The position numbers were made by a program, and so were the translations under genes. From the NCBI GenBank assembly GCA_016192905.1, contig JACPTG010000004.1:173734-237733 (forward strand): a stretch of 64,000 nucleotides of DNA, read 5' to 3'. Below are positions 9,613-64,000 of this stretch, piece after piece. This stretch comes from Candidatus Woesearchaeota archaeon. Lineage in GTDB: Archaea; Nanobdellota; Nanobdellia; Woesearchaeales; UBA10216. Position 1 is the first letter of the stretch. Each line of letters starts with the position of its first letter. Under the pieces are notes generated by a model, which searched no databases, was not told the origin of the DNA, and saw nothing but the letters and a program-made list of their open reading frames with translations.

Positions 9613-11054
9613 AAAGATTCCCTCATTATTTCTATCGGAGCTTTTTTGCCGGTCCACAGCTCAAACTGGCCGGTTGCCTGGTGAAGGAGCATTGCGAGGC
9701 CGTCCACTGTCATGCAGCCGGATTCTTTTGCCTCTCTTAACAGCCTTGTTACAGGCGGCTTGTATATAACGTCCATGACGACACCCCTCAACTGCGCTTT
9801 CGGGACAGGGGTTTCGCCATCATTTGGGCTCATTCCAACAGTGGTGCAGTTTATCAGGATGTCGTATTCCATCTTATCCAGGTCGCTTATCGGGCCATAG
9901 CCACACCCAAGCTTTTCCGCAACCTGCCTGGCCCTCTCCACAGTCCTGTTCAGGATGAAAAGCCTGCAGCCTTCCCTTGACAGCTCGAACGCAACTGATT
10001 TTGCAGCCCCTCCAGCGCCGATGATTACTACGACTTTGCCCTTAATGGCGGTCTTTTCCAAAAGCGCCTTCTTCGCGCCCATGCCGTCAGTGTTGTGCCC
10101 AATAAAGATGCCGTCCCTGACTGAAATCGTATTCACAGCGCCAATCTTCCCGGCGTTTTCATCCATGCTGTCAAGATGCCTAATTACCTGCTCCTTGTAG
10201 GGCGTTGTTACAGAAAACCCGGCAGGGTTCAGCTTCCTGATTTCACCAAGGAAAGCAGCCAGATTGTCAACCTCGAATTTCATGTGCACGAAGTTAAGGC
10301 CCAATTTCTCATACACAGGGTTGAACATGAAGAAGCTCCTGCTGTACCTCGCAGGCCTTCCGATAGTGCCAAGAATCCCTGTTTTCCGGTTCAGCCTATC
10401 AGCCCTGTAAACATCCTTCATAAGCGAAAACTGAATCTGCCCTGTAGCAGACTCCATTCCTGAATCAAGGGCGGCATAGGTGAGAAAAGAGCCAAACACC
10501 CTGTAAAGAATCCTGCTAAGCTCGCCCTTCTCCCCCATGCAAACAGCTATGAAAGGCGTTTTCAAATCCTTCACAGACTCAAACATGCGGATATTGTCAA
10601 CTATGTCATTTGCAAAAGTGGCGACCTTGGCAATATCGCAGCCAACGCCTTCCAATTCGGCAAAAATCCTTCTTATTTCCCCTATGTCAGCCGGAGTCTC
10701 TTTTAGGTTATGGAAGGAAACAATCAGCCTGCAGCTTCCCCTGCCGTCCGCCAGCATCTTAATCGAATCCGAGCCGCTGCTAAGCTCCACATCAACATAA
10801 TCTGCGCCAAGGCTTATGGCGTCCTTAAGCAGCGCTATCCTTTCGTCCTCGCTTCCCCTGTAAAAACCGCCCTCCTCCTTTTTCCTGCAAGTCACTATAA
10901 CCTGCTTTTTCCTGGCGCTGAGCAGCCTGCCAAGCCTTGGGCTTTCCATGCAGTCAATCCTGAGCTCAATTATGTCTGCACCCCTTGCCGCCGCTGTTTC
11001 CATACAGTCCAGGGCTTCCTGCTCAGTTTTCGCTGTTATGGGGATGCATATCAT
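9597..11054 (-). CDS. bifunctional 3-dehydroquinate dehydratase (type I) / shikimate dehydrogenase fusion
   Basis: 485 aa. The N-terminal half is type-I DHQase: ICIPITAKT…GADIIELRIDCM. The C-terminal half is SDH: …HNTDGMGAKKAL…VVIIGAGGAAKSVA…. Confidence 0.85.
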   Translation of the reverse strand: MICIPITAKTEQEALDCMETAAARGADIIELRIDCMESPRLGRLLSARKKQVIVTCRKKEEGGFYRGSEDERIALLKDAISLGADYVDVELSSGSDSIKMLADGRGSCRLIVSFHNLKETPADIGEIRRIFAELEGVGCDIAKVATFANDIVDNIRMFESVKDLKTPFIAVCMGEKGELSRILYRVFGSFLTYAALDSGMESATGQIQFSLMKDVYRADRLNRKTGILGTIGRPARYSRSFFMFNPVYEKLGLNFVHMKFEVDNLAAFLGEIRKLNPAGFSVTTPYKEQVIRHLDSMDENAGKIGAVNTISVRDGIFIGHNTDGMGAKKALLEKTAIKGKVVVIIGAGGAAKSVAFELSREGCRLFILNRTVERARQVAEKLGCGYGPISDLDKMEYDILINCTTVGMSPNDGETPVPKAQLRGVVMDVIYKPPVTRLLREAKESGCMTVDGLAMLLHQATGQFELWTGKKAPIEIMRESLWKSL

Positions 11055-11344: not shown

Positions 11345-12420
11345 CTGCTGCCGTCTATGCTTTTCCTTACTAATTCCTCGTCAACATTCCTTAGCCTGTC
11401 AACCTTTCCTATTCCACCGAGGAGAGCGTATTCTGCCTGCCTGTTTTTTGCCTTTTTGTCCAGCATGGTTTTTGCAATTATGTCGGCTGTTTTTATATCC
11501 CCAGGCACCTTAACAGGCAGCCCTGCGCGTTCCAGCAGGCTATTCTGCCTTTCTATGTCCTGCTTTTTCATCGCCTTTTCAGCCAAGCACGCTTCCACAG
11601 CCATACCTATGGATATTGCCTCGCCGTGGCTAAGCGTATAGCTGCTCAGCTGCTCCACAGCATGCCCTATCGTATGGCCATAGTTCAGGGCTTTCCTAAG
11701 CATGCTTTCCCTCTCATCCTTCATGACAATTGCAGACTTTACAGCCGCACACCTTGATATTGCCTCCATAAGCGCGTTCTTGTCCTTTGCCAGCACTTTT
11801 TCAATGTCCCTTTCAAGGTATTCAAACAGCTTTTTGTCAGCAATCATCGCGTGCTTTATGCACTCAGCCAATCCGCTGCCCATTTCCCTGGCAGGAAGAG
11901 TTTCAAGGAAGTCCAAATCTGAAAATACGGCTTTGGGCTGCCAGAAAGCGCCAATCAAATTCTTGCCATGGCGCGTATCAACGCCGGTCTTTCCTCCAAT
12001 GCTGCTGTCAACCATTGACAACAGAGTTGTAGGGACATGAATGTAAGGAACCCCCCTGCAGTAAGTTGCGGCCACAAATCCTGCAAGGTCCCCAACCACT
12101 CCGCCGCCCAAGGCTATTATGAGCGTATCCCTCCCAAACCCATTCATGATAAGCTCATCCTCAATAAGGGCTTTTGTATCGCGGCTCTTTCCTGCCTCTC
12201 CAGGCTTGATGCTCACAAGCTCTGCTGCAACATGCGCCTTTTCAAGGGCGTCCAAAACCTTCCTGCTGAAAAGCCCCTCAGTGTTGCTGTCTGTTATAAC
12301 GCACGACCTCAAGCCCATGGCCTTTGCAAATTTTGCCATTTCCTGAAGGAGCCCTGAGCCTATGTGAATGTCGTATGACTCATCCACAGCTTTTTTCAGG
12401 CTTAACCTTATTGCCGCCAT
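11341..12420 (-). CDS. aroB: 3-dehydroquinate synthase
   Basis: GGGVVGDLAGFVAATYCRGVPYIHVPTTLLSMVDSSIGGKTGV. Start at MAAIRLSL, just after the DAHP synthase stop. Confidence 0.9.
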   Translation of the reverse strand: MAAIRLSLKKAVDESYDIHIGSGLLQEMAKFAKAMGLRSCVITDSNTEGLFSRKVLDALEKAHVAAELVSIKPGEAGKSRDTKALIEDELIMNGFGRDTLIIALGGGVVGDLAGFVAATYCRGVPYIHVPTTLLSMVDSSIGGKTGVDTRHGKNLIGAFWQPKAVFSDLDFLETLPAREMGSGLAECIKHAMIADKKLFEYLERDIEKVLAKDKNALMEAISRCAAVKSAIVMKDERESMLRKALNYGHTIGHAVEQLSSYTLSHGEAISIGMAVEACLAEKAMKKQDIERQNSLLERAGLPVKVPGDIKTADIIAKTMLDKKAKNRQAEYALLGGIGKVDRLRNVDEELVRKSIDGSR

Positions 12421-15314: not shown

Positions 15315-16226
15315 ATGAAGCACAGCATAAGGACAACAGCACTGCTGCTGACGCTATTCCTGCTCACACAGCTGGTCGGGCTTGTCGTTGTGGACAACTA
15401 CATAGACAAGGAAGCAACTGAGAAAACAGGGGCTGTAACCTACAAAGACCTGCCATACCACATAGAGAGGCCGAATGTCTCGCCGCAGGAATCAATCTGG
15501 CTAATACTGGCCGGAGTGGGCATAGGCACCGCAATCCTGCTGGTTCTAATCAAATTCAGGAAGGTAGGCCTCTGGAAGGTCTGGTTTTTCCTCAGCGTTG
15601 CAATAACCCTAAGCATGGCCCTGGCATCATTCATACCAGCGGCCGCTGCCCTGGCTGCAAGCATCGGCCTGGCCGCCTGGAAAACATTCAGGCCAAACAT
15701 CTACGTGCACAACATTACAGAGGTGTTCATATACGGCGGGCTGGCCGCGATATTCGTACCAATGCTCAACATACTATACGCGACAATACTATTGCTTGCA
15801 ATTTCTGCATACGATGCGATAGCAGTCTGGCAAAGCAGGCACATGGTAACCATGGCGCAATTCCAAACCTCAACAGGAATATTCTCAGGCCTTTACCTTC
15901 CCAAGGAGGCCCACCATGGAAGGCGGAGGGAGAAGGCTGAATTTCAGCCAGGGAAGGCCGCAGGGCAGCCAGCCAAGCCCCAAGAGAAGGAAACAAGCGC
16001 AGTGCTTGGAGGAGGCGACATGGGCTTCCCCCTGATATTTGCAGGCGTTGCGCTGAAAACACTACCCTTTGCCCAGGTCCTCATAATACCTGCGGCTGCA
16101 GGCCTGGCAATTCTTGGCCTTATGGTGTTTGGCAAGCAGAATAAATTTTACCCTGCAATGCCCTTCATAACAGCCGCGTGCCTGCTTGGATACGGGCTAA
16201 GCGTTTTTTTGGCTCTTTATGCCTAA
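15315..16226 (+). CDS. presenilin/signal-peptide-peptidase-like intramembrane aspartyl protease (GxGD type)
   Basis: 303 aa and about 9 TM. YD motif in a TM (AISAYDAIAVW). Long hydrophilic loop. GGGDMGFPLIF and PAM(PF) lie in later TMs, giving the presenilin-homolog topology. Confidence 0.5.
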   Translation: MKHSIRTTALLLTLFLLTQLVGLVVVDNYIDKEATEKTGAVTYKDLPYHIERPNVSPQESIWLILAGVGIGTAILLVLIKFRKVGLWKVWFFLSVAITLSMALASFIPAAAALAASIGLAAWKTFRPNIYVHNITEVFIYGGLAAIFVPMLNILYATILLLAISAYDAIAVWQSRHMVTMAQFQTSTGIFSGLYLPKEAHHGRRREKAEFQPGKAAGQPAKPQEKETSAVLGGGDMGFPLIFAGVALKTLPFAQVLIIPAAAGLAILGLMVFGKQNKFYPAMPFITAACLLGYGLSVFLALYA

Positions 16227-16323
16227 AAGGCAGCATACGCCCCGAATCCGCCCGGGGCTATCACTCTTGTCCTGCCGATAGCCATCATTAAGAGCGGTTT
16301 GTGGCTTTTTTCCTGGCGAGCAG

Positions 16324-20397: not shown

Positions 20398-20486
20398 CCA
20401 GACTGGAAGGGGAATCTTTGTTTATAAATGTGTCTGGATTGCCAATAGAAACAATTAAATTACACCCAAAGAAACTGCACTAATAT

Positions 20487-20573
20487 ACGGCAGTGGTCAA
20501 ACGGCATGACAGGAGCTTCCCAAGGCAATGCTGCAAAAAGCTTCTAGTCCGGGTTCAATTCCCGGCTGCCGTA
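20487..20573 (+). tRNA. tRNA-Gly(CCC) with 16-nt intron at canonical position 37/38
   Basis: Acceptor ACGGCAG/CTGCCGT with discriminator A. D-arm GTCA…TGAC. Anticodon stem GGAGC/GCTTC, loop TTCCCAA. T-arm CCGGG-TTCAATT-CCCGG. The intron is AGGCAATGCTGCAAAA. A TATA (tttataaatg) lies upstream. Confidence 0.7.
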
Positions 20574-20634
20574 TGAAACTTGTCCCTTCCCGGCCTTGGG
20601 TTACCTTTAAATCCTCCAAAAGATTACCTGCCTT

Positions 20635-21234: not shown

Positions 21235-23652
21235 ATGGCAGAACTAGACCTATTGAATCTGGACTATGAGGACAAATACGGGTTCAGAGACCCTGAAGTC
21301 TACGTCAAAAAACTGCAAAAAGGCCTCTCAGCAGAAGTGGTCCGGGAAATATCAGAAACAAAAGGCGAGCCAGAATGGATGCTCAAATTCCGGCTGAAAG
21401 CGCTTGACATATTTTACAGGAAAAAGATGCCTCAATGGGGCGCAGACCTGTCTGCAATAAACTTTGACGACATCATCTACTACATCAAACCATCTGAGAG
21501 AAAGGCAACAAACTGGGAGGACGTGCCTGAAAAAATCAAGCAGACCTTTGAAAAGCTAGGCATACCCGAGGCTGAGAGAAAATTCCTTGGCGGCTCAGGC
21601 GCGCAGTATGAATCAGAAGTCGTGTACCACAAGCTCAGGGAAGACCTTGAGAAGAAGGGAGTGGTGTTCCTCGACACCGATACCGGCCTGAAGGAGTATG
21701 AAAGCCTGTTCAAGCAGCACTTCGGGACTGTGGTTCCCCCCCACGACAACAAGTTTGCCGCGCTCAACAGCGCAGCATGGAGCGGCGGGAGCTTCATCTA
21801 TGTCCCGAAAAACGTAAAGGTGGACATGCCCCTGCAGGCCTATTTCAGGATAAACGCCCAGAGCATGGGACAGTTTGAAAGGACGCTTATAATGGCAGAT
21901 GAGGGGGCGTCTGTTACATACGTCGAGGCCTGCACAGCCCCCATGTATTCAACCAATTCGCTGCATGCGGCCGTGGTTGAGCTTATCGCAATGAAAAATT
22001 CCAAAATCAGGTACACCACCATACAGAACTGGTCAAGCAATGTGTACAACCTTGTAACAAAAAGGGCATTCGCCTATGAGCATGCATTTGTCGAGTGGAT
22101 TGACGGGAATTTGGGCTGTTTATCCGGCGACGCACAGGTTTTCCTAAACAGTAACCTCAAGCCTATTTCGGAAGTGCAAGCGGGCGATAGCATTTTTGCG
22201 ATGGATGGCTATTTCAATTTAGAAAAGCGAAAGGTTGCCAGCAAAAAATTCAGCGGCAAGCAAAAAATTTTCAAGCTTAAGACACTAAACCACCGTGAAA
22301 TAAAGGCCACTGCAAGCCACCCTTTTCTTATTTTCAGAAAGCTTGGCAAATTCAGCTTTGCTGAATGGACCCCGCTTGATAAGATAAAGATTGGCGACCT
22401 AATCGCCATCTCGGGCCACATCCCCGACTCTGGAGAGCCGTTAAAAATTACGTTTTCAAAAAAAGGCATTAAAGAACTCAAAATCCCCGATGAAACCAAT
22501 GATGATTTGCTATGGCTAATGGGGGTTTACATTGGAGATGGCTATTGCGACAAAAACAGAGTATATTTTGCCGTTCCTGAAACGGACAAGGCCTGCCCCA
22601 AGCTTGTAAGGCTGCTTAAAGAGATTTTCGGAGTTGCCGGGGAAAGGAAGGGGGTCGTCCTTAGAATTGCCTCGGTAGACTTGGTAAGGTTTATCAAGCA
22701 AACTCTTGGGTTCTATGGCACTGCCCAAACCAAACGGATACCTGGCTGGATTTTTACCATTCCAAAATCCCAGCGGCTTGCCCTATTAGACGGATATATA
22801 GCCGCTGATGGATACATCCGCGAAAATCATACAAACATATCCATAACCAGCTCTAACAGGCAGCTTCTTTCCGAAGTGAAAATGCTGGCAATAACCTGCG
22901 GTTTAAACCCGATGAAAATAAGCACATGGACCAGACGGGAGTTAAAGCCCCTTGGCAAGGAAATTAAGGAATATACACACCACTTTCTCTATTTTGGGGA
23001 GGGAAAATTCGAGAAGGACGTTGTTTTCTGTCCAGTTTCAGATATTACCTTCTGCGGCGAAGAGGACACATGGGATATAGAAGTTGAAGACAGCCATAAC
23101 TTTGTCGCAAATGGATTTATTGTTCATAACTCAAATATCACCATGAAGTACCCGAGCGTTTACCTACTCGGAAGAAACGCGAAGGCAGACATACTATCCG
23201 TCGCGTTCGCTGGCAAGGGCCAGCACCAGGATGCTGGCGGAAAGGCGCTTCATTTTGCTCCGGACACCACATCAACAATAATCTCAAAGTCGATAAGCAA
23301 AGGCGGGGGAAGGACCTCATACAGGGGCCTTTTACATGTTGAGAAGGGAGCGACAGGCGTAAAGTCAAACGTGAGATGCGACGCGTTAATACTGGATGAG
23401 GCATCAAGGTCAGACACATATCCGTACATGAAAATCGAGGAGCAGGACACAACCATAACCCATGAGGCGACAGTTGGAAAAATCGGCGAGGACAAGATAT
23501 TCTACCTAATGAGCCGCGGACTGACCGAGCAGCAGGCAATCGCAATGATAGTCCTTGGATTTGTGGAACAGTTCACCAAAGAACTGCCAATGGAATATGC
23601 TGTGGAACTCAACAGGCTGATAAGGCTTGAAATGGCAGGAAGCGTAGGATGA
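21235..23652 (+). CDS. sufB: Fe-S cluster assembly protein SufB, interrupted by an intein
   Basis: N-extein 294 aa (…FVEWIDGNLG) and C-extein (SNITMKYPSVYLLG…EDKIFYLMSRG…) together make ~466 aa of SufB. Confidence 0.9.
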   Translation: MAELDLLNLDYEDKYGFRDPEVYVKKLQKGLSAEVVREISETKGEPEWMLKFRLKALDIFYRKKMPQWGADLSAINFDDIIYYIKPSERKATNWEDVPEKIKQTFEKLGIPEAERKFLGGSGAQYESEVVYHKLREDLEKKGVVFLDTDTGLKEYESLFKQHFGTVVPPHDNKFAALNSAAWSGGSFIYVPKNVKVDMPLQAYFRINAQSMGQFERTLIMADEGASVTYVEACTAPMYSTNSLHAAVVELIAMKNSKIRYTTIQNWSSNVYNLVTKRAFAYEHAFVEWIDGNLGCLSGDAQVFLNSNLKPISEVQAGDSIFAMDGYFNLEKRKVASKKFSGKQKIFKLKTLNHREIKATASHPFLIFRKLGKFSFAEWTPLDKIKIGDLIAISGHIPDSGEPLKITFSKKGIKELKIPDETNDDLLWLMGVYIGDGYCDKNRVYFAVPETDKACPKLVRLLKEIFGVAGERKGVVLRIASVDLVRFIKQTLGFYGTAQTKRIPGWIFTIPKSQRLALLDGYIAADGYIRENHTNISITSSNRQLLSEVKMLAITCGLNPMKISTWTRRELKPLGKEIKEYTHHFLYFGEGKFEKDVVFCPVSDITFCGEEDTWDIEVEDSHNFVANGFIVHNSNITMKYPSVYLLGRNAKADILSVAFAGKGQHQDAGGKALHFAPDTTSTIISKSISKGGGRTSYRGLLHVEKGATGVKSNVRCDALILDEASRSDTYPYMKIEEQDTTITHEATVGKIGEDKIFYLMSRGLTEQQAIAMIVLGFVEQFTKELPMEYAVELNRLIRLEMAGSVG
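22117..23130 (+). mobile_element. SufB intein with LAGLIDADG homing-endonuclease domain (338 aa)
   Basis: Starts CLSGDAQVFL (block A). LAGLIDADG blocks LLWLMGVYIGDGYC and LALLDGYIAADGYI. Ends …VANGFIVHN followed by extein +1 Ser. Confidence 0.85.
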
Positions 23653-30786: not shown

Positions 30787-31410
30787 TTACGCATGCGCCC
30801 GCTTGATGTGCTTGAGCCTTGCGAAGTTCTCCCTCTCCATCTCCTCAAGCCTGAGCCTTACGTAGGAAGCTGATGCCTCAAGCCTTGGAATGGTGATTTT
30901 CTCAAGCGCATTAACCTTCCTCTTGGTCTTCTCAATCTCCTGCAGCAGCCTCCTCAATGCGGTTTCGTGCTCTGCCGCCTCCAGAACCTTCTCAACAAGC
31001 TTCTCGTAGGCAAGCGCTGCCTCGTCAATCTTAATAGAGCCGGAAAGGTAGCCAAAGCCCCTGGTGAAAATGCGCTTCTGCACAGCGCCCTTCTTTATGC
31101 TGGGCACCAGAACGCCCATCACGTTCTTGGCCTCAAGCTGGATAACCGGCTTGTCCTTAACAGCCAGCGCTACAGACTTAACAGCCAAATCAGAGTCAAG
31201 CGCCCTGGTGATATTCATCTTCCCAAGCGCATGCCTGTACTCCTCCACAAGCTCAGAGCGAACATTCCTGGCCTTTTCAAGTGCCTTGAAGAACTCAATA
31301 ATAAGGCCGTCACGCTTCTTCTTAAGCATGCTATGGCCAGACCTTGCCAGCTTAATCTTCTTCCTGAGAAGAAGCAGCTCGCTTCTATTTGGAGTTACGT
31401 TCTGGGACAT
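30787..31410 (-). CDS. atpD: A1AO (V-type) ATP synthase subunit D
   Basis: 207 aa. Coiled-coil subunit with the pattern typical of subunit D (…[25 protein letters not shown]…). Confidence 0.9.
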
Positions 31411-34357
31411 TCTTGTAGTACTTCTTCCTCAGCTCAGGGCTTATCCTGACAAGCTCAGCCTCAGGCAGGGCTCCCAAAAGAGCCCAAGCAACCCTAAGCG
31501 TATCCTCCTGGACAGACCTGTTCTCATTCCTGGCCTGCCTGACGAACACGTCCTCAAAGGAGGCTGCGAACTTCAAAAGGCGGCGGTCCCTCTCAGCAAG
31601 CGACTCCTCGCCGACAATAGCAGCCAGGCCCCTGAGGTCGCGGCCCTCAGCATAGGCTGCGTACAGCTGGTCTGAAACCTGCTTGTGGTCCTCCCTTGTC
31701 TTGCCCTGGCCGATGCCAAGGTTCATCAGCCTTGACAGGGATGGCAAAACATCAATCGGAGGGTAAATGTTCTTCCGGTGAAGCTCCCTGCTCAGGACAA
31801 TCTGGCCCTCGGTAATGTACCCTGTCAGGTCAGGAATCGGATGGGTGATGTCATCACCAATCATGGTCAAAATCGGAATCTGCGTAACAGAGCCCTTCTT
31901 TCCCTTGACAATCCCGGCCCGTTCATACAGCGAAGCGAGGTCAGTGTACATATAGCCGGGGTAGCCCCTCCTCCCGGGAATCTCCTCCCTGGCCGCGCCA
32001 ATCTCACGAAGTGATTCACAATTTGATATTATTAAGCCATTTCCAACCAAGAATTTTCCTGTTTCTGGAATGGTGACATCAAAAACAAACAAGTCTTTTG
32101 GTTCAGTTACTTTAATGTCTGTGATTTCGTCCAAAATGAATTCATCATTTGCATGTTTCTTTAACTCTTTCAGGATTTCATCATTTTCTGCAACGAGTTG
32201 AGAGAACTTTTCCATGCATTTTACAAGTTGCACTTTACTAATTCTCTTAAAGCCCCGTTCAACTTCAGACAACTGGCCGTTACTGGAAATTTGAGTTTGT
32301 TTTATTCCATATTTATGCCTCAATGCCCTTATTAATGTTCCGCAAACTCTCGGCGCATATTCAAATTCAGCGCTCTCTAAAGCATTATCCTTTACCTTCT
32401 CTAATTTATGTCTTTTATGCGGGTGTGATGCGCCAACTTTTTCAACAAACAAGTTAACATACCTTTTGCCTCTTATGATTATGTCAAACACATTACTCTC
32501 TCCATAAGTGCCTGTAGAGTGCCTATCAACAATGATAGAAGCTATTCCAAGTCTCCTTAAAAGCTGTTGGAGCCTTTTGATAACTTTTTCATTCACAGAA
32601 GTATATTGAATGACCCTTCTATTGACAATGCAGCTGCCATCGCCATCAAAGTAGCCTCTCAAAAATGCAGAAATCAAGTTTTCAGGCAATGAGAACAATT
32701 TCTTAAATTCCTTATCTTTCAAACCAAAGAAAGTTGCTATGTCGCAGTAAGCCTTATTATTAATTCTGCATATACTTACTCCATCTTGACTCTTGAAATC
32801 TGTAATCTGGATGTTGGGGAAAATTGTTGTAATCTTTTTCTTGTATATTTTTCTCAAATCAGAACTTGTATTTGAGAAATCCACGCGATAGATGTGGCTA
32901 TTCTCATTTCTTATCAATGAGCCATCAGAAGCAACTAGCCCTAGCAAGTAAAGTAAGTCGTCGTTTGCGTATGCCGTCGCTATTTTCAATCTATTGCCGC
33001 CAACATGCGATATGGCTGAAATTGCCTTCTCTATTGGCAACTCAGGACATATTTTAATCAATGCTCGAATCTCTTTAACATTCAAGAAACTTTCAGAATC
33101 TGTTAGCCTTGAATAATTAATGCCCGATTCTTTACATGCTTCCTTCAGTGAACCATACAGTTTTTTCAGTTTTTGTTTGCTGGTTTCCCTGACTAACTTA
33201 TCAAAGAAAACAATTGTGTTTTCATTTAATGCATCTATTATGGAAGGAATAGCCGTATTCACATTTATTTTTGATGTAATTGCGACTCTATCACCTTTCT
33301 TTAATTGGCCTGCAGGCGCCATTCTTAGTCCAAGAATCGTGTCTGTCAGTATCCTATGATTTGGCGTCAAGGTTAATTTGTTTCCTGAGCGAGTTGATAG
33401 TTCTATCATTTGCATTGAAGCTGGAAGCTTTTGAACTCGGGCAATCTGTTTAATGGCATCATTATTACCGTCCCATGTTAGCGCTTTTTCTTCCTTATCC
33501 CTAATATCAACATCAGAACCTCTTGTTTGACTTTCAACAAATTCTTTAATTGTTGTTATTCTTCCATCACCTAAAAACATCTCAGTTTCTCCAGCGACGC
33601 AGTAGTTCGTCATATCAGTCAATATTACCAGCACATGCATGTCCTTCTCATACGCAAAATACTCTGCTGCTGTAAGCGCCATTCTTGGAGTTATAAGCCT
33701 CTCCACAGCAGGGTCATCTGCCAGGTTGAGGAATACGAGAGACCTCTTAAGCGCGCCAGTGTTCTCGAAATCAGTAATAAAGCGCTGCGCTTCCTCATTG
33801 GTAATGCCCATTGCGGCAAAGATGACGACAAAGCCAGCCTCTTTGCCCAGAACCCTTGCCTGCCTTGCAATCTGAAGGGCAATGTCGTTGTGCGGCAGGC
33901 CAGAGCCTGAGAAAACAGGCAGCTTCTGCCCCCTGACAAGCGTATTCATCAGGTCAATGGTTGAAATACCTGTCTGGATGAAGTCCTCAGGGCCTGCCCT
34001 GGCCACCGGGTTAATGGCAGCCCCGGTAATGTCAAGCTTATCCTCAGGAATAATTTCAGGGCCGTTGTCAATGGGCTTTCCAGCGCCGCTAAGAATCCTT
34101 CCAAGCATGTCCGGGGAAACAGGCAGCCTGATGTTTTCGCCAAGGAACCTTACGCGGGCATCCCTGTCCAGGCCAGAAGTGCCCTCGAAAACCTGGACTA
34201 CGACTATATCATCACTTGTATCAAGAACCTGGCCTGTCTTTAATTCACCTGAAGGCGTGGCAATCCTTACCAGGTCATTATAGCCAACAGGGTCTGTCTT
34301 CCTTACAAAGACAAGCGGGCCTGCAATCCGTGAAACAGTCTTATACTCCTTTTCCAT
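31385..34357 (-). CDS. atpB: A1AO (V-type) ATP synthase subunit B, interrupted by an intein
   Basis: The N-extein ends …ILTDMTNY. The C-extein begins [36 protein letters not shown]. The exteins sum to ~464 aa. Start taken at MEKEYKTV. Confidence 0.9.
32021..33601 (-). mobile_element. intein in ATP synthase subunit B with LAGLIDADG endonuclease domain (527 aa)
   Basis: Starts [22 protein letters not shown] blocks [14 protein letters not shown] and [11 protein letters not shown]. Ends [11 protein letters not shown] with +1 Cys. In frame. Confidence 0.85.
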
Positions 34358-41655: not shown

Positions 41656-42594
41656 TTGGGGGTTATAATGGATGTAAGGAAAATCGTGAGCTTCGGCAAC
41701 TCGTCATTCGTAATTTCGCTACCAAAAAAGTGGGTTATAAGCCACGGGCTCAAGAAGGGCGACAGCGTCTATGTTGACGAGCGCAATTCCGAGCTGATCG
41801 TCTCAGGGGCTGAGAAGACCAAAAAGGCGCCAAGCCATGCCGTAATCAGCGCCGAGGGCAAGTCGCTTGCCGAGCTGAAGACAGAGATTTTTGCAGCTTA
41901 CGTCAACAATTACAGCATGGTTTCCATATCCGGCGGGAACGTAAAGGACATTTCGCCAGACATCAAGAGGATAATCCATGGCCTTGTCGGCATGGAGGTT
42001 GTCGAGGAGACGGCTTCAAGCATTGTCGTAAAGGACCTCATGGACCTGAGCGAGGTATCAATCGACAGCCTTGTGAGGAGGATGGACATCCTCCTGAAAT
42101 CAATGCTTGAGGACTCGGCCCAGCCTGACAGGAAGGAGAGCGTGAGCGAGCGGGACAAGGAAGTGAACCGCTTGGCACTCCTTTCAGCCAGGATTTTCAA
42201 GGCAGTGACCGAAAACCCCGGCCTGCTCAGGATTTTCGGCAACAGCTACTGGGACATGTACATCGCAAGGCAGGTCGCATTCCAGCTTGAGCATATAGGG
42301 GATAATGTCAAGAGGGCTTCAAGGCAGCTTGGCAGGAAGGGCAATGAAGACCTGAGGAGGATTTTCAGCCAGCTCAGGTCACGTTACCTGGAAGTGATGA
42401 AGGTTTACTATACAAAGGACAAGGAAGCCGCATATAGGCTTGAGTCTGACACGCGGAAGTTCCTCCACGCCTGCGACAAGCTGATTGAAAAAAACAGGGA
42501 TGTCACATCCACAAGGATTATCGACAACCTCAACGGAATGTCAAAGGCCATGATGTACATACTGAGGACGGTAATGGAAAGCGGGTCGGCGTAG
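41656..42594 (+). CDS. PhoU-domain protein with N-terminal AbrB/SpoVT swapped-hairpin domain
   Basis: 312 aa. VRKIVSFGNSSFVISLPKKWVISHGLKKGDSVYV is the AbrB-like part, followed by PhoU-like helical repeats. A paralog lies at 56927..57862. Confidence 0.72.
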   Translation: MGVIMDVRKIVSFGNSSFVISLPKKWVISHGLKKGDSVYVDERNSELIVSGAEKTKKAPSHAVISAEGKSLAELKTEIFAAYVNNYSMVSISGGNVKDISPDIKRIIHGLVGMEVVEETASSIVVKDLMDLSEVSIDSLVRRMDILLKSMLEDSAQPDRKESVSERDKEVNRLALLSARIFKAVTENPGLLRIFGNSYWDMYIARQVAFQLEHIGDNVKRASRQLGRKGNEDLRRIFSQLRSRYLEVMKVYYTKDKEAAYRLESDTRKFLHACDKLIEKNRDVTSTRIIDNLNGMSKAMMYILRTVMESGSA

Positions 42595-54969: not shown

Positions 54970-56946
54970 ATGTTCTCGGAAAGGAACAGGCTTAGGATGA
55001 GCAGCCTGAGGAGCGGCCTGGAAAAATACCTGGACGTGGGGGCCTCAGCTTTAAATGCGGCGCAGCACGGCCTTGAGAAAGCAGTAAACTCAGTCCTGGA
55101 ATACCATGCAGCCACATCAGCCCTCGCATTCCCGCCTGCGTGGTGGGCTTTTGACAGGCTGTTCAGTCTTGGAGTGCAGCTAATCAACTCCTACAGGGAA
55201 TACCAAACAGCACAGCCTGCGGCAAATCCAGACGCGGCAATACTGACATCAGGAGGCTTGGCTGCGCTTCTGGCAGCGCAATACCTGAACCACCAGCTGA
55301 GGATACAAAGGTCAATAAGACAGATAGGGCTCAAGAGAGACCTGGTAATTAGGGCGGCCCGCAGCCACATTTCTTCCAGAGGCAAAAGCACGCCAATCCA
55401 GATATGGGACAGCCTGTTTGAAAATGCGCACGCCACAGCCGCAATACCAGTCGGAATAGCATACTCAGCCTACGGATACAACCTGCCGGCACTGGCAATG
55501 ATATACGGGGCTAGTTTTCTCGCACTGCGGATTTCAGGGCCCTGGCTGGAGTCAGACTCCTTCCTGTGGCCAAGACTGAAAGGCGCGCTGATGGGAAGGC
55601 GGGATTACATCACCAGCCTTGAGCGGATGGCAGAGGAAACAAACAACACCAAGGCAAGGCAGGAATTGATGAACCACTACTTTTCCATGGGAGATGCAAT
55701 CGCTGCCTACGCCCACGCCAAAGCACTTAGGGAAAGAGGAATCAGCCACCCAAAGACATACCACATCCCGCTCCACCCATACCCATATCAGGAGGCCATC
55801 GCAGACCAAATGGAAAGAGTAGAGCAGGGAGCAGCAGGGCTCCAGGACTATGCAGTGCTGGCAGCGCTCCTGGCAGGCGTTGACAGGCATAAGGCTAGGG
55901 ATACACTTATGAGCATGGCAGAGAGGCATAAAACACCAGAAGCAAGGGCACTCGCATTCCTTTTCCTCCATGACCTTGGCTTCACTGATGAAAAGGACAT
56001 GCAGGTCGGCCTGGCCCTGGAGGAGATAGTCCAATCGCCGGAAAAATACAGGAGAAGACAGCTTGAGAAACCACATCCAGTGTATGTAATACAGCACCCG
56101 CTTCTGGAAAATGACGTGGCCATCAAGATACATCCAGATGCAAAGGCTGAAAGCGAACTCCTCAGAATCGCAAGAATCAGCCTTTGCAACCATCCAACAT
56201 TCTTCGGCCTGGAGGTATTTCATACAGGCCACTTACCCTTTAGCTATTACGCGATGGGCCTCCTTAAAGAAGGGAGCACACTATACAGGGAACTGATGTC
56301 AGGACAGGCTGGCCTTGCTGAGATAATGCTGGCAAGCGAGCTGACAAGCAGGCTTCACACTGCATTTGAGGGTGTCCAGGCAGTGGAGGTTGAGGCTCAA
56401 GGAAAGCTTGCATCCATACTCGCAAAGGAATACCTCAACATTCCACCACACACATTAAAGCTCCTTCATGAAGGAATTCCTTTCCTGGCCCAGCACATTT
56501 CAACCTCGCCATACAAATTCAACACAGACGGCCACCCGGAAAACAGGTGGATTGTGCGCACGCCTGACAGGACTAAAATGGCGCCTCTTGATTTTGGAAG
56601 GAGGGAAAGGGTGAACGCAGTAATGGAAGATGCAGCACTGACGAGGTATGACGACTACCTCGGCGACGCTGAAATCGAGGCATATGCCAGGGAAAAAGGC
56701 CTTGAGCCCATAGCCTTTCAATGTGCTGTCGCTGCAAAAATGCTTTCATACTGCTCTGCATGCATGGAGCCGCAGCGGGGCAAGGACACGGCCAGGGCTG
56801 ACGGGTTCCTAAGAAGGGCAATTCATGCAATTGAAATGCTCAAGAATGCAGCGCCAATAACATACGGCAGGCACTCCAAAGGGTTAGGGTCACTGGTCAG
56901 CGGCCTGTCAATAATGAGAGAACAGATTAAACTGACAGGGCAATAA
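54970..56946 (+). CDS. membrane-associated atypical protein-kinase-like protein
   Basis: 658 aa. N-terminal ~380 aa are helical with hydrophobic segments. The C-terminal half has VAIKIHPDAK (VAIK), FNTDGHPENRWIV (a catalytic-loop-like D…N), and LDFGRRE (DFG). Confidence 0.55.
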   Translation: MFSERNRLRMSSLRSGLEKYLDVGASALNAAQHGLEKAVNSVLEYHAATSALAFPPAWWAFDRLFSLGVQLINSYREYQTAQPAANPDAAILTSGGLAALLAAQYLNHQLRIQRSIRQIGLKRDLVIRAARSHISSRGKSTPIQIWDSLFENAHATAAIPVGIAYSAYGYNLPALAMIYGASFLALRISGPWLESDSFLWPRLKGALMGRRDYITSLERMAEETNNTKARQELMNHYFSMGDAIAAYAHAKALRERGISHPKTYHIPLHPYPYQEAIADQMERVEQGAAGLQDYAVLAALLAGVDRHKARDTLMSMAERHKTPEARALAFLFLHDLGFTDEKDMQVGLALEEIVQSPEKYRRRQLEKPHPVYVIQHPLLENDVAIKIHPDAKAESELLRIARISLCNHPTFFGLEVFHTGHLPFSYYAMGLLKEGSTLYRELMSGQAGLAEIMLASELTSRLHTAFEGVQAVEVEAQGKLASILAKEYLNIPPHTLKLLHEGIPFLAQHISTSPYKFNTDGHPENRWIVRTPDRTKMAPLDFGRRERVNAVMEDAALTRYDDYLGDAEIEAYAREKGLEPIAFQCAVAAKMLSYCSACMEPQRGKDTARADGFLRRAIHAIEMLKNAAPITYGRHSKGLGSLVSGLSIMREQIKLTGQ

Positions 56947-57862
56947 AGGCGGCTGAAAAGTTTGACACAAGGTCAAGCTGCTCCATCAGCAATGCAACCG
57001 AAGCAGACTCATGCCTCTGGCACTTCTGAAGAAAATGCTGCGCCCCCCTATAAATCTCTGATTTCCTGGCAGCAAGCTCCGGAACCACCTTAACCCTATC
57101 TGCCCCAGGCATATAAAGGGCTTCATAATAGGCCCTGAGAAGGGCATTTGACTCCTGAGCCAAGCTGATGAATTGCCCGCTTACCTGCCTTGATTCGGCC
57201 AGGCCAGACAACGACTTCGCGATGGCAGCAAGGCAATCACAAACCTTCTCCAGATTCCACGCCACAATATAGGCAAAGCAGGTCTTCCTATACTCGCTGT
57301 GGCCATACTTAACAAGAATGCGCTCGCAAAAGTTGACAAGCTGGTTGTTCGTCTGCTCAAGATGAAGCAAACCCTCCAGCTCAGCATACCTGCCTGCCTT
57401 TAAGTACTCTACAAGACTGTCGCCAAGGGACAAGGTTACCATGAATGCCCGGCGCAGCGCTGAATCAGCCTCTCCAGGCACCTCTGTAGAAACAGAACGG
57501 ATAATCAGCCTGCTCCCTGACTGCTCTGTAATGGCAGAGCCAATGAAAAGACTCCTGACTAAATCATGAACAAGCCTTACAGTTTCAGCATCCTCAAACA
57601 AGACCTCAATCTCATCAAAACCCCGCTTGTTCAGCGCACCAAGGCCCCAGCTCAGCATCCTGGGCTCAAGGCCACGCGCGTCAAATACAGCGCGCTCGGC
57701 AGAAGGATGGCTGGCAGCAGATATAATCAGGCGGCTGTCCTTGTCATCAACATCCACCTCGTCGCCCTTCTTAATGCCTACCCGCCTTGCCCACCGGCTG
57801 GGCAGGGAAACAACCAAGGTCTTTCCAGCCAGCTGAATAACCTTTCTTTTCATATACGCCAT
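56927..57862 (-). CDS. PhoU-domain protein with N-terminal AbrB-like domain (paralog of 41656..42594)
   Basis: KRKVIQLAGKTLVVSLPSRWARRVGIKKGDEVDV plus a PhoU-like helical domain. Confidence 0.72.
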   Translation of the reverse strand: MAYMKRKVIQLAGKTLVVSLPSRWARRVGIKKGDEVDVDDKDSRLIISAASHPSAERAVFDARGLEPRMLSWGLGALNKRGFDEIEVLFEDAETVRLVHDLVRSLFIGSAITEQSGSRLIIRSVSTEVPGEADSALRRAFMVTLSLGDSLVEYLKAGRYAELEGLLHLEQTNNQLVNFCERILVKYGHSEYRKTCFAYIVAWNLEKVCDCLAAIAKSLSGLAESRQVSGQFISLAQESNALLRAYYEALYMPGADRVKVVPELAARKSEIYRGAQHFLQKCQRHESASVALLMEQLDLVSNFSAAFIALSV

Positions 57863-60126: not shown

Positions 60127-61140
60127 TCACTTAACCACATTAACCTGCTTCTTCCTGGCATAACCGCTGACATTCTCAACAGTGGTATCAAGAATCCTCA
60201 GCAAAGCCTCCCTGCTGTTGAAGGCATTGTGGGGAGTGATAATCACGTTGCCCATCCGCTGAAGCATGTGATTCTGAAGGACAGTCCGCAGGTCACAGGT
60301 CTGAGCAAAGCCTGCCGAAAGGAGCTGCTTCTCCTCCTTAATCTCGCACTCCTCCTCAAGAACATCAAGCCCTGCAGCAGCAAGCTGGCCTGAAGACAAA
60401 CCGCCAATGAGGGCCTCAGTCTCAACCAGGCCGCCCCTTGCAGTGTTAATAAGAATAGAACCCTTTTTCATTGAATTGATGTTAGACTTGTTGATTAAGT
60501 GGTGGGTGGCCTTGTTGTAGGGGCAGTGTAAAGTTACTAAATCGCTGTTCTTCAGCAGCTTTGCCATGTCTGCATACCTAAACCCGAGGTTTTTGGCCAG
60601 CCCGGAGTCCCGGTTAAGGTCAAAAGCCAGCACATCCATCTCAAAGCCGCGGGCCATCCTTGCGACATGCTGGCCAATGCTGCCCATGCCGACAATGCCT
60701 ATTGTTTTACCCTTAAGGTCAAAGCCCCTCAGCCCTTCCAGGCTAAAGTCGCCCTTCCTCGTGCGGTCAACGCTCTCCACAATCTTTCTTGAGAGGGCAA
60801 GTATAAGCGCGAAGGTGTGCTCGGCAACAGTATTCTCGCCATAATTTGGAACATTGCAAACAACAATTTTCCTCTTCCGGCATTCCTCCAGGTCAATATG
60901 GTCAAAGCCAGTGGACATGGTCGCGATGAGCTTAAGCTTAGGCAGGGAATCAAGAACTGACTTGTCAACCTTGGAGTAAATGAAAACCGCAAGAACCTCA
61001 GCATCCCTGACCTTCCTCAATGAAGCGCCATCAATCTTGCCGCTGAAAAAAACAGGCGAGAAGCCCTTCAGATTTTTGGATATGTGCTCGCGCTCCCAGT
61101 CCTCAACCTCAAAGAAGGCTGCCTTCCGCATAACCAGCAA
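60127..61140 (-). CDS. D-isomer-specific 2-hydroxyacid dehydrogenase (D-lactate dehydrogenase-like)
   Basis: 337 aa. GIVGMGSIGQHVARM (NAD-binding). The catalytic R/E/H triad context is present (…TARGGLV…, …ITPHNAF…). Confidence 0.88.
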   Translation of the reverse strand: MLVMRKAAFFEVEDWEREHISKNLKGFSPVFFSGKIDGASLRKVRDAEVLAVFIYSKVDKSVLDSLPKLKLIATMSTGFDHIDLEECRKRKIVVCNVPNYGENTVAEHTFALILALSRKIVESVDRTRKGDFSLEGLRGFDLKGKTIGIVGMGSIGQHVARMARGFEMDVLAFDLNRDSGLAKNLGFRYADMAKLLKNSDLVTLHCPYNKATHHLINKSNINSMKKGSILINTARGGLVETEALIGGLSSGQLAAAGLDVLEEECEIKEEKQLLSAGFAQTCDLRTVLQNHMLQRMGNVIITPHNAFNSREALLRILDTTVENVSGYARKKQVNVVK

Positions 61141-61257
61141 TCCCTGATGGAACTATAAAAAACTTTGCCTGCGGTAATGCGGACATGGCCAAATTCAGAA
61201 TCCGCCCGGGGCCACTTTTTCACAAACTTTATATACTTGTTATAACACGTAATTACT

Positions 61258-61455
61258 ATGGGGCTTATTTTGACCCTTCATGCGAAAGAGCAGATGGTCG
61301 AAAGGGGAGTAAGCAGGCAGCAGGTCATTGATACGATAAAGAAAGGGTCAAAAGTTGTTCAGACTGACGGGTTTTTAGCCTCTTATAGCTACATAAAGGT
61401 AGCATACAAGATGAGAGGTGATAAATTCATTGTAAAAACGGTGATGCTAAGATGA
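61258..61455 (+). CDS. DUF4258-family putative toxin
   Basis: 65 aa. LTLHAKEQMVERGVSRQQVIDTIKKG matches the DUF4258 consensus (HAxEQMxERGIS). Confidence 0.55.
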   Translation: MGLILTLHAKEQMVERGVSRQQVIDTIKKGSKVVQTDGFLASYSYIKVAYKMRGDKFIVKTVMLR

Positions 61456-61787
61456 GCGAAAAATGCTATATTTGTGAAAAAGGCGAACTTCTAAAGAAGA
61501 AAGTAGATGTCAAGCCTTATGGTGTTTCAATCGGAAAGTTTGATGCCCAAGTTTGCACTGAATGCAACGAAACGTTCTTTAGCGAGCAAACATCAGATAA
61601 GATAGATGAAGTTGCAAAAATCAAAGGGCTGTGGGGACTTGAAGCCCGAACCAAGATAGGCCAGGTCGGAAATTCGATTGATGTTAAGATAAGCAAGAAA
61701 ATTGCTGAATTTGCAGGCCTCAAGAAAGGAGGAGAAGTCAGAGTTTATCCCGAAGGGAAAAACAGGATAATAATTGAGTCTGCTTGA
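61452..61787 (+). CDS. putative antitoxin: N-terminal Zn ribbon (YgiT/MqsA-like) + C-terminal AbrB/SpoVT-like domain
   Basis: CYICEKG…CTECNE and VKISKKIAEFAGLKKGGEVRVYPEGKNRIIIE. Overlaps the upstream ORF by 4 nt. Confidence 0.55.
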   Translation: MSEKCYICEKGELLKKKVDVKPYGVSIGKFDAQVCTECNETFFSEQTSDKIDEVAKIKGLWGLEARTKIGQVGNSIDVKISKKIAEFAGLKKGGEVRVYPEGKNRIIIESA

Positions 61788-61805
61788 AAAAGAAATCGCC
61801 CCGAC

Positions 61806-61846
61806 TTTTAACAAAAACATCCATAGTCCGCCCAAGGCTACTTTTT
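61806..61846. repeat. 40-nt intergenic repeat, copy A (TTTTAACAAAAACATCCATAGTCCGCCCAAGGCTACTTTT)
   Basis: Identical 40/40 to 63111..63150 and about 31/40 to 63903..63945. Each copy begins 6-15 nt after a stop codon. Confidence 0.6.
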
Positions 61847-62212
61847 GCTTTTTTTCCCATCCTCAGCCCAATGAATCATGGGATGAAGCGCTCGCATCAG
61901 TTTCTTTCCATTTTTGGTTAAAGAATATTCAACTCTTGGCGGCATTTCATTAAATGAATGCCTTTGGACTATTCTCTCAGCTTCTAATTCCCGCAAGCGT
62001 TCTGTCAAAATCTTGGCTGTTGCTTTTTCAAGCCTGTCCTTAAGCTCGTTAAACCTTAGTATTCCAAAGTTTCCAATGGTAATTATAATTGATATAGACC
62101 ATTTTTTGCTTAGGAAATCAGAAGCCTCTTCAAGAGGCCTGGGACAGTAGCCCTTTAAAGACTTCATTTTACAACACTTAGTATCAATTTGGATAGTTTT
62201 GTTAGTTTCCAT
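61838..62212 (-). CDS. HxlR-type winged-helix transcriptional regulator
   Basis: 124 aa. CPRPLEEASDFLSKKWSISIIITIGNFGILRFNELKDRL…ILTERLRELEAERIV matches the HxlR family. Confidence 0.72.
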   Translation of the reverse strand: METNKTIQIDTKCCKMKSLKGYCPRPLEEASDFLSKKWSISIIITIGNFGILRFNELKDRLEKATAKILTERLRELEAERIVQRHSFNEMPPRVEYSLTKNGKKLMRALHPMIHWAEDGKKSKK

Positions 62213-62292
62213 TTTTAAACTCCTAAATTTAAATAGTAGCTTACTTTATTTGTTATACTAAGTAGATTATTTAAACTTTGTGAGGTGGAACG

Positions 62293-62427
62293 TATGGAGA
62301 AGAGAAAACCCTGCTGCTCAGGAGGCATATGCCCTGCTTGTGAATGCTGCATATGCATTTGCACGAAGGAGTTAAAGAAAATACTCTCGCCGGAAGTGAG
62401 AAAATTGCTACTAAAGGAAATTGATTA
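62293..62427 (+). CDS. Cys-rich 44-aa peptide (8 Cys)
   Basis: MEKRKPCCSGGICPACECCICICTKELKKILSPEVRKLLLKEID*. SD GAGGTGG upstream. Divergent from hxlR. Confidence 0.4.
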
Positions 62428-62458
62428 AGGCAAATAAATTGATGATGAGTGGAAATCT

Positions 62459-62962
62459 ATGCTAAAAGTAATGTATACTGTCTTATCTAACAGGAAATAT
62501 TTAGCAATAGCTATATTTTCCACAATATCATTAATGATTTTATACATCATTTCATTATCTTCTGTGGTTTTAAAATCATTCGATATAATTACTGATACTG
62601 CGATGCTCAGTTCTATTTTCTCTGGCGGTTTGTTACAACTTATTTTAATTGGCGTACTTACAATATTATTTGGCATCTGGTTAGCGATGCAGCTTTATCT
62701 GCGATGGGAAAATAAGGAAATGAAGGCAACTCCAATTGCTGCAGCGAGCGGAAGCGTATTCAGTGGCTTCTTGGGAGGGTTGGGCGCACTTGGGGGATGT
62801 CCTGCTTGCCTCGTTATCATTACAGCGGTTATAGGCAGTACAGCAACCGCATTCCTACTTCAGTACAGGACACCAATTGTGCTGTTAGCAATAGCATTAA
62901 GTGTCCTGTCTATTTATATTACATCAAAATCCATAGAGAATAAATGCGGGTGGTGCAAATGA
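62459..62962 (+). CDS. membrane protein with intramembrane Cys pair (GGCPACL) and C-terminal CGWCK
   Basis: 167 aa, about 4 TM. Confidence 0.5.
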   Translation: MLKVMYTVLSNRKYLAIAIFSTISLMILYIISLSSVVLKSFDIITDTAMLSSIFSGGLLQLILIGVLTILFGIWLAMQLYLRWENKEMKATPIAAASGSVFSGFLGGLGALGGCPACLVIITAVIGSTATAFLLQYRTPIVLLAIALSVLSIYITSKSIENKCGWCK

Positions 62963-63093
62963 CAAAATCTTTTATCTGCCCCGAATGTAATTTTTCCTAT
63001 AGGGGAAAAAAGTGGGCAGAAAAATGCGAAAAGTGGTGCAAGGAGCACAATAGCTGTAATATTGAAATTACAAAACACGCTATTCAAACATGA
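62959..63093 (+). CDS. 44-aa Zn-ribbon-like mini-protein
   Basis: MTKSFICPECNFSYRGKKWAEKCEKWCKEHNSCNIEITKHAIQT*. Its ATGA overlaps the upstream gene. Confidence 0.4.
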   Translation: MTKSFICPECNFSYRGKKWAEKCEKWCKEHNSCNIEITKHAIQT

Positions 63094-63110
63094 TTTTAGT
63101 TAGCCCTTAT

Positions 63111-63150
63111 TTTTAACAAAAACATCCATAGTCCGCCCAAGGCTACTTTT
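63111..63150. repeat. 40-nt intergenic repeat, copy B
   Basis: Identical to copy A. Directly follows the Zn-ribbon mini-ORF stop. Confidence 0.6.
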
Positions 63151-63158
63151 CTATATCT

Positions 63159-63431
63159 TTATTGCTTGCTGATGAACTCCATTATTTCTTTTTTCATTTT
63201 TGGATTTAACGAGACGTGGAGTTCTCCAGTTGATTTTTTGGCAAGAAGCCAACTATCATTAATCAGCTCTTTTATGGCGTTGTCAATCAATTTTTGACCT
63301 TCCTTTGTTGATGTAAAATTGGAAGGGAAACCTTTTTTCAGATTTCTTACATCAGTATGCTTGCCTCCCCATCTAGGAGGAGTTATAAGTCCATCAAGAA
63401 TTATCCTTTTTACAACTTTAGCATCATGCAT
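63159..63431 (-). CDS. hypothetical small protein
   Basis: 90 aa. No diagnostic motif. Lies in the AT-rich island. Confidence 0.4.
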   Translation of the reverse strand: MHDAKVVKRIILDGLITPPRWGGKHTDVRNLKKGFPSNFTSTKEGQKLIDNAIKELINDSWLLAKKSTGELHVSLNPKMKKEIMEFISKQ

Positions 63432-63546
63432 GTTTCAAATCGCCATACACCCCTTAATAACGCTTTCTTCTATAATGATATGATATGATATTAAAACAAA
63501 AGATTTAAATATGCATGGATGTAGCTATAGCCATATATGAAAAGGG

Positions 63547-63891
63547 ATGAACAAAATGGAACAACCGATATTCATTAAAGCGCTTGGTGACACACCGAAG
63601 ATAAGGATTTTGAACTACTTAATAAAGTACCGTGGGTTGGACTACTCGATGTCGGATATTGCCAGGAACAGCAATGTTGGCTGGGCAACTCTTAGCAGGT
63701 TATGGAAAGAATTTGTAGGATTGAAGATAATGACTGCTACAAGAGAAGTAGGAAAGGCGAAACTGTTCAAGTTAAATGAGAAAAATGAAGCAGTCATGAA
63801 GCTTATAGAAGTATACAATAAACTGTTAGAACAAGAAACAGAAGACTATTTTGCCAAAAATACAACAACAGTTAAGTCTACTGTAGAATAA
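63547..63891 (+). CDS. winged-helix DNA-binding protein
   Basis: 114 aa. KIRILNYLIKYRGLDYSMSDIARNSNVGWATLSRLWKEFVGLKIM is HTH-like. Confidence 0.55.
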   Translation: MNKMEQPIFIKALGDTPKIRILNYLIKYRGLDYSMSDIARNSNVGWATLSRLWKEFVGLKIMTATREVGKAKLFKLNEKNEAVMKLIEVYNKLLEQETEDYFAKNTTTVKSTVE

Positions 63892-63902
63892 GAAAAGCCC
63901 CG

Positions 63903-63945
63903 CTTTTTAACAGAAACATTAAGTGTCCGCCCGGGGCTACTCTTT
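63903..63945. repeat. 40-nt intergenic repeat, diverged copy C
   Basis: CTTTTTAACAGAAACATTAAGTGTCCGCCCGGGGCTACTCTTT. The flank GCCCCG…CGGGGC can form a hairpin. Follows the stop of the wHTH gene. Confidence 0.5.
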
Positions 63946-64000
63946 AAATTACCCTAATCTTTATATCTCCTTTGTCCACTACCCAGTGCTTCCGAAGCCG

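Follow-up and report, generated by a model that had tools for sequence, protein, structure and literature searches.

The window analysed here, a stretch of 64,000 nucleotides from a Candidatus Woesearchaeota archaeon (NCBI GenBank assembly GCA_016192905.1, contig JACPTG010000004.1, positions 173,734 to 237,733 of the forward strand), is an ordinary chromosome segment with a GC content of 49%. The translations of its open reading frames (ORFs) read as aromatic amino-acid synthesis, SUF and A-type ATPase genes, and Pfam confirms the identity of SufB and of the ATPase B subunit. Close to the right-hand end of the window, a 2-hydroxyacid dehydrogenase gene and the dUTPase gene, both of them housekeeping genes, are separated by a 2.76-kb island, which the copies of a short repeat, the subject of this study, split into three unrelated modules (61221-63945; Table 1). 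The GC content is 31-42% in the island (about 39-40% in module 1), compared with 49-51% in its flanks, and the island is thus foreign in base composition. We refer to the repeat copies in the window as A, B and C (full copies), D (a right half) and S (a short relative).

The 40-mer TTTTAACAAAAACATCCATAGTCCGCCCAAGGCTACTTTT occurs twice without any difference on the + strand, at 61806-61845 and 63111-63150, and none of 100 shuffles gave such a match; a third copy is 79% identical. Two exact copies and a diverged one are also what the initial annotation of this DNA describes. Repeat finding enlarged the family to 48 nt, with copy identities of 94% for B and 79% for C. The three copies first listed are real, but a fourth, the right-half copy D, and the short relative S had been overlooked. 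On its left, copy D is preceded by the dehydrogenase promoter, and module 1 follows it. Copies D, A, B and C are all direct repeats, and their spacings of 626, 1305 and 794 nt, with genes between them, uphold the earlier exclusion of clustered regularly interspaced short palindromic repeats (CRISPR). A recent local duplication carrying the flanking genes along with the repeat, which had been considered at the outset, does not account for the copies either: the flanking genes are unrelated, and the window has additional copies, as have two other genomes.

The full copies A, B and C are each flanked by convergent genes and closely follow a + strand ORF. The stop codons before them occupy 61785-61787, 63091-63093 and 63889-63891, leaving 10, 9 and 5 nt, respectively, to the GCCC that opens the extended repeat, or 18, 17 and 13 nt in the register of the 40-mer; the distance of 6-15 nt past a same-strand stop given originally was therefore approximately right. 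On the opposite strand, the stop codon of the HxlR regulator gene (61838-61840) falls inside copy A. The HxlR ORF runs through the T-run of this copy, which gives the protein its tail (...GKKSKK), and the CTA of the repeat core is its TAG stop; the HxlR homologue on another public contig, L016, has a C-terminal end unlike that of the window protein.

Site S lies 12 nt past the stop codon of the ORF at 15315-16226, with convergent genes on both sides, and has an exact stretch of 17 nt in common with the copy on L006, a contig of a relative described below. It may be a site that is not occupied, or a derivative that arose by deletion. When the whole window was searched with a profile, no repeat copies came up beyond A, B, C, D and S. 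The 64 kb hold at least five copies, and the 61 kb of ordinary genes outside the island contain just one repeat relative. A match at 12103-12117, which lies inside a coding region and has two mismatches, was treated as chance. The short-read public assemblies L001 and L010 end within copies A and B.

Table 1. Repeat copies, modules and flanking genes in the window (aa, amino acids).
Feature	Position	Strand	Description
Site S	16239-16260	+	GCCCCGAATCCGCCCGGGGCTA, read as GCCCCG-AA-TCCGCCCGGGGCTA; without the 22-nt AT-rich middle
2-Hydroxyacid dehydrogenase gene	60127-61131	-	Left chromosomal flank
Copy D	61193-61220	+	Right 28 nt only, ATTCAGAATCCGCCCGGGGCCACTTTTT; core TCCGCCCGGGGCCA at 61201-61214; left junction of the island
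Module 1	61221-61797	+	Toxin-antitoxin pair; own TATA-like box at 61228-61235
DUF4258 toxin	61258-61455	+	Module 1
YgiT/MqsA-type zinc-finger and AbrB-like antitoxin	61452-61787	+	Module 1
Copy A	61798-61845	+	Full site: left arm GCCCCGACTTTTAACAAAAAC, right half ATCCATAGTCCGCCCAAGGCTACTTTTT
Module 2	61838-63102	both	Metal cluster (putative)
HxlR regulator	61838-62212	-	Module 2; divergent from the other three genes
Cys-rich peptide, 44-47 aa	62285-62428	+	Module 2
MerE-like membrane protein	62459-62962	+	Module 2
Zinc-ribbon protein, 49 aa	62944-63093	+	Module 2
Copy B	63103-63150	+	Full site; 45 of 48 positions shared with copy A
Module 3	63152-63896	both	Two small DNA-binding-like genes
90-aa protein	63159-63431	-	Module 3; divergent from the 114-aa protein
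Putative helix-turn-helix protein, 114 aa	63547-63891	+	Module 3
Copy C	63897-63944	+	Full site; core TCCGCCCGGGGCTA at 63926-63939; right junction of the island
dUTPase gene, 3' end	63979-64000	-	Right chromosomal flank; stop codon 63979-63981

Repeat copies are known from three genomes, namely the metagenome-assembled genome (MAG) that contains the window, a second MAG (labelled Methanosarcinales) to which the contigs L006 and L015 both belong, and a third, L019, which by its accession range comes from another assembly. Comparison with further relatives identifies the island as an insertion, since in L012 and L013, with a protein identity of about 70%, the dUTPase and dehydrogenase genes are neighbours only 155-240 nt apart and show no trace of the repeat. 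On the right-hand side, the public contig L001, which overlaps the end of the window, continues past the island with the genes for dUTPase, NrdR and Cob adenosyltransferase.

Scans of genome (one genome per species) and metagenome collections with the pattern ATNNNNNNTCCGCCCRRGGCYACTYTT gave six matches, among which L006 was the only true relative. This contig carries the same dehydrogenase gene, and its flanks have a nucleotide identity of 94-97% to those of the window. The identity spans the dehydrogenase promoter and copy D and ends directly past ...GGGGCYACTTTTT, which comprises the core and the T-run. A different module of 0.57 kb follows the L006 counterpart of copy D, and identity is back exactly at the dUTPase stop codon. 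At only 47 aa, the second ORF of this alternative module (L006 2688-2831), whose end is about 30 nt short of the dUTPase stop codon, seems truncated; this suggests a deletion, in which a right-hand repeat copy may have been lost. A partial dehydrogenase more than 90% identical to that of the window (MBI4210308.1, P0272) is encoded on a 2.7-kb contig of another MAG, labelled Diapherotrites; the left junction of the island is probably present there in a further version.

The second comparison concerns a Fic gene. In L015 a homologue of module 2 is found at another locus, beside this gene, and its membrane protein is 92% identical to that of the window. A full repeat copy, E, overlaps the stop codon of the Fic gene, and a degenerate right-half copy, F, lies upstream of it. 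In L019 the orthologous Fic gene stands between an intact right-half copy upstream (GTCCGCCCGGGGCTAT) and a full copy downstream, and the genes around it are wholly different from those in L015. The two contigs are unrelated until the upstream copy and then mostly exceed 90% identity through the promoter, the gene and the left arm of the downstream copy; identity falls within the remainder of that copy, and straight after its core the contigs are unrelated once more. Two independent comparisons, that of L006 with the window and that of L015 with L019, therefore locate the homology breaks at the repeat. Both show the same asymmetry, with a left border made up of a right half only, and at the right-hand ends of the array every window module closes with a full site.

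Fic-family genes recur near variable DNA in several Woesearchaeota, by dUTPase in L013 (6311-7231) and by a module 2 homologue in L015 (1513-2367) and L016 (2505-3476). In L019 (Fic positions 10001-10855 and 11364-11768), a Bro-N gene and another Fic copy, which is truncated, are present downstream. Two apparent remnants of the repeat at about 1106-1146 of L015 and a weak match in the L006 module were no better than shuffled sequence (p = 0.08-0.2) and were dropped. The plasmid and phage collections contained no BLASTN match to the repeat, and three repeat patterns gave none among viral contigs; 11 core-only matches to viral contigs all came from unrelated GC-rich contigs with dissimilar flanks and were taken as chance.

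The anatomy of the site was defined by aligning five full copies, A, B, C, E (L015) and E'' (L019). A full site is about 48 bp long and consists of a left arm, beginning with GCCCnnnnTTTTAACAnnAA..., and a right half of about 28 bp that closes in the near-invariant core TCCGCCCGGGGCTA. The invariant positions, from left to right, are GCCC, then, after four variable bases, TTTTAACA, and, after two more variable bases, AA, together with GTCCGC within the core. The left arm is present in A, B, C, E and E'' and absent in D, D', F and F''. In its middle part the site exists in two types, CATAG (A, B and E) and AGTG (C and E''). Since the orthologous Fic-associated copies differ in this respect, the sites are mosaic, as would be expected if recombining partners swap right halves. 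The differences between copies A and B are confined to the first 8 nt, and this near-identity is consistent with a Campbell-type event that recently brought module 2 into a site already in place. T-runs had originally been described at both ends of the repeat; runs of T4-T5 do exist in most copies, but they lie outside the conserved positions, with copy C ending in CTCTTT and copy E in CATTTC.

Prediction of RNA folding, for every copy and on both strands, revealed no common structure. Copy C folds beyond shuffled sequence (z = -2.3 on the + strand and -3.4 on the - strand), whereas copies A and B have no excess stability (z = -0.4 and 0.05 on the + strand, -0.4 and -0.25 on the - strand); site S gave z = -1.9. 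The complementarity GCCCCG...CGGGGC that had been recognised in copy C is real. Positions 63897-63902 pair with 63932-63937, and the stem AGCCCCG/CGGGGCT is stable in copy C alone. As a terminal inverted repeat of 6-7 bp, GCCCCG/CGGGGC is restricted to copy C and site S, the latter having 6-bp arms around an 8-nt spacer, while the dyads of copies A and B are imperfect and reach 5 bp at most.

We see about an even chance that the copies of the repeat are attachment (att-type) sites of an integron-like cassette system with the integrase in trans, and that they bound small mobile modules. A recombination site was one of the options raised at the outset and is the one that best fits the data: the copies form the borders of the modules, copy D is without the module-side arm, and homology breaks at the copies. 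Direct repeats of a shared core here bound foreign DNA between genes that are adjacent elsewhere. In such a system, right-half-only sites in the chromosome would be the targets, and the left arm of a full site would travel with the module. A circularised module with one full site would recombine conservatively with a chromosomal right-half site, after which the left junction would hold a right half alone and the right junction a complete site; several such rounds would yield the D-A-B-C array. That copy D consists of a right half only is what would be expected of a left junction. Scans with Pfam, PHROGs and NCBIfam, which included the module proteins, did not find a recombinase, and since neither the modules nor the neighbouring DNA encode one, the enzyme would have to act in trans. 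The likeliest candidate would be a tyrosine recombinase whose gene lies at another place in the genome. We infer this enzyme, the position of the crossover and the circular intermediates from the arrangement of the sites.

Several points weigh against attachment sites. Domain scans detected no recombinase gene in the island, in about 11 kb leftward or in about 3-4 kb rightward of it, and no circular form or truly empty site was observed. The core has weak inverted arms, which form no clear recombinase-type dyad. The L006 module is without a right-hand full copy. About ten copies are known in total, from three genomes of one lineage, and the more distant relatives L012, L013, L016, L017 and L018 have none; more broadly, no copy was present in L012-L014 (homologues of the flanking genes) or in L016-L018 (distant homologues of module 2). 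Ordinary homologous recombination between repeats of 14-40 nt could give the same borders, and the regular position just past stop codons would also fit a function at the 3' end of the RNA.

This last point leads to the view that the repeat is a 3'-end element, be it an oligo-T terminator or insulator or a motif of the 3' untranslated region or for protein binding, and that homologous recombination shuffles DNA between its copies. Runs of T4-T5 are an archaeal termination signal and occur here on both strands; in addition, the full copies start 5-10 nt past, or overlap, a same-strand stop codon and each have convergent genes around them. However, it is the GC-rich core and not the T-runs that is conserved, no fold is shared, and a terminator scan called no site with a hairpin and T-run at any copy. 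A hairpin terminator, as suggested in the initial annotation, finds no support in the same results or in copies A and B, which do not fold. Furthermore, the right-half copies D and F'' are found upstream of genes, at left module borders, and the repeat has a single relative among the other 61 kb of ordinary genes. We consider a 3'-end element unlikely on these grounds. A somewhat different history, in which the copies are scars of decayed integrase-carrying plasmids or viruses integrated in tandem at a tRNA-like target, seems to us less probable still, even though there is ample documentation of archaeal elements that integrate in tandem and have direct att repeats (PMC8371274). No tRNA gene or fragment exists at any copy: ARAGORN called no tRNA there, and an Rfam search of 60900-64000 at E<=10 returned only noise, with no tRNA match and no family for the repeat. 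The modules measure 0.6-1.3 kb and are intact operons, and four unrelated modules share an ending in which an ORF stop is followed by the left arm; such uniform endings make random decay an unlikely source. By eye, the right half (TTCA..TCCGCC-CGGGGCT-A) bears a loose likeness to the T-loop, T-stem and acceptor 3' end of a tRNA, a likeness that no test confirmed.

The small size of the repeat, its position outside genes and the 6-7 bp terminal inverted repeats of copy C and site S could also point to a selfish element resembling repetitive extragenic palindromic (REP) sequences or miniature inverted-repeat transposable elements (MITEs), whose association with module borders would then be secondary. 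Yet target-site duplications are absent, the copies are few, A and B have no stem, the half-copies keep the left/right asymmetry, and all copies except site S stand at module borders. The MITE-like origin proposed initially is correspondingly weak, and we hold a selfish element of either kind to be quite improbable. Lowest of all is our estimate for a canonical integron cassette array without integrase, that is, a cluster of attC sites lacking integron-integrases (CALIN), with the repeats as attC sites. A search of 61100-64000 for the attC-type pair RYYYAAC...GTTRRRY found none at A, B or C and only one pair, inside the HxlR coding region; a conserved hairpin is lacking, the site of 48 nt falls below the 57-141 nt of attC, and the modules comprise several genes, on both strands and with their own promoters. 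A CALIN would nonetheless account for the single, uniformly oriented site at each module's 3' end and for the toxin-antitoxin content, which is typical of cassettes, and integrons and CALINs have been reported in DPANN genomes (GTDB Nanoarchaeota; PMC9668308). Two further candidates were ruled out, a diversity-generating retroelement by aligned copies whose differences are not adenine-specific, and an origin-recognition box by the direct orientation of all copies, no orc1/cdc6 having been noticed among the window ORFs (for which no domain search was made).

Functionally, the attachment sites that we favour are closest to integron arrays without a nearby integrase and to tandem, recombinase-less islands with repeated integration sites. 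As in integron arrays and CALINs, the site follows directly behind the last same-strand ORF, its orientation is constant and the genes are accessory ones including a toxin-antitoxin pair; the first site of the array is shorter and of a different type, and no integrase adjoins, as in CALINs. The present sites differ in their shorter length and in having neither attC inverse cores nor a conserved single-strand hairpin, and the modules, of 2-4 genes on both strands with their own promoters, occupy at least 2-3 chromosomal loci and not one platform. Composite staphylococcal cassette chromosome (SCC) elements are tandem islands with repeated integration site sequences, some of them without a recombinase of their own. 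There, too, the left junction, internal sites and right junction form direct repeats around unrelated modules, and modules without a recombinase would rely on an enzyme in trans. SCC-type islands nevertheless integrate at one known target within a conserved gene, by means of serine or tyrosine recombinases that are known, and the modules described here are about ten times smaller. Xer/dif modules are represented by the pdif modules of Acinetobacter plasmids and by archaeal XerA/dif, dif being a single site per chromosome. They resemble the present case in small modules that include toxin-antitoxin genes, in short sites and in a host recombinase acting in trans. The repeats described here have no 11-6-11 palindrome (the dyad of the 28-bp Xer/dif site, with its 11-bp arms and 6-bp spacer, is not present at the copies), are direct instead of alternating and have several copies per chromosome. 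Archaeal integrative elements have att sites in tRNA genes or in intergenic DNA, and their tandem integration is known (PMC8371274). They share with the island direct repeats of a short core around foreign, low-GC DNA, whereas here no tRNA gene is found at any site and no integrase in the inserted DNA. The review of archaeal tyrosine recombinases nowhere mentions DPANN (PMC8371274), and the archaeal integrons reported to date were detected by models of bacterial attC sites (PMC9668308).

The modules themselves differ in content. In module 1, both L002 and L003, which are public short-read contigs from sister samples, stop at about 61456-61474, the junction of toxin and antitoxin, and the exact 111-aa antitoxin has no record in the sequence collection; this suggests variation at the strain level. 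Module 2 combines a peptide rich in CC and CxxC, a GGCPAC motif in the MerE-like membrane protein and a zinc ribbon (62285-63093), and by these motifs it looks like part of a cluster for metal (mercury-like) handling. It has about 30 homologues, mostly on contigs of 1-2 kb, and in L016 (1-2350) the homologue is adjoined by more small Cys-containing and membrane proteins. The proteins of module 3 gave no above-threshold family match.

Elsewhere in the window, SufB (21235-23652, + strand) and the A-type ATPase B subunit (31385-34357, - strand) contain inteins with a LAGLIDADG endonuclease domain (Pfam Intein_splicing and LAGLIDADG_3). The sole tRNA call of ARAGORN, at 20486-20574 (+ strand), has an odd 4-base anticodon and is probably an intron-containing archaeal tRNA. 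Two paralogues of about 311 aa (41656-42594, + strand; 56927-57862, - strand) carry an AbrB/MazE-type domain at the N terminus, and the long C-terminal part of each has no family match.

In summary, DPANN archaea have tiny genomes, and to our knowledge little is known of how they gain and shuffle accessory genes. We tentatively raise the possibility, which we consider doubtful on balance, that Woesearchaeota, which belong to the DPANN archaea, possess an undescribed, integron-like form of cassette capture, in which promoter-bearing modules of 0.6-1.3 kb, a non-attC site of about 48 bp, a recombinase in trans and core sites at several chromosomal positions would together let genes for defence, toxin-antitoxin pairs, Fic proteins and metal resistance pass between loci and genomes. 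If this is true, DPANN would have a second way, similar to integrons, of capturing genes at several loci, and the breaks that assemblies show at such islands would be explained. The pattern GCCCNNNNTTTTAACANNAANNNNNNNNGTCCGC, derived from the site, could serve to trace the system and its recombinase in complete genomes and read sets.

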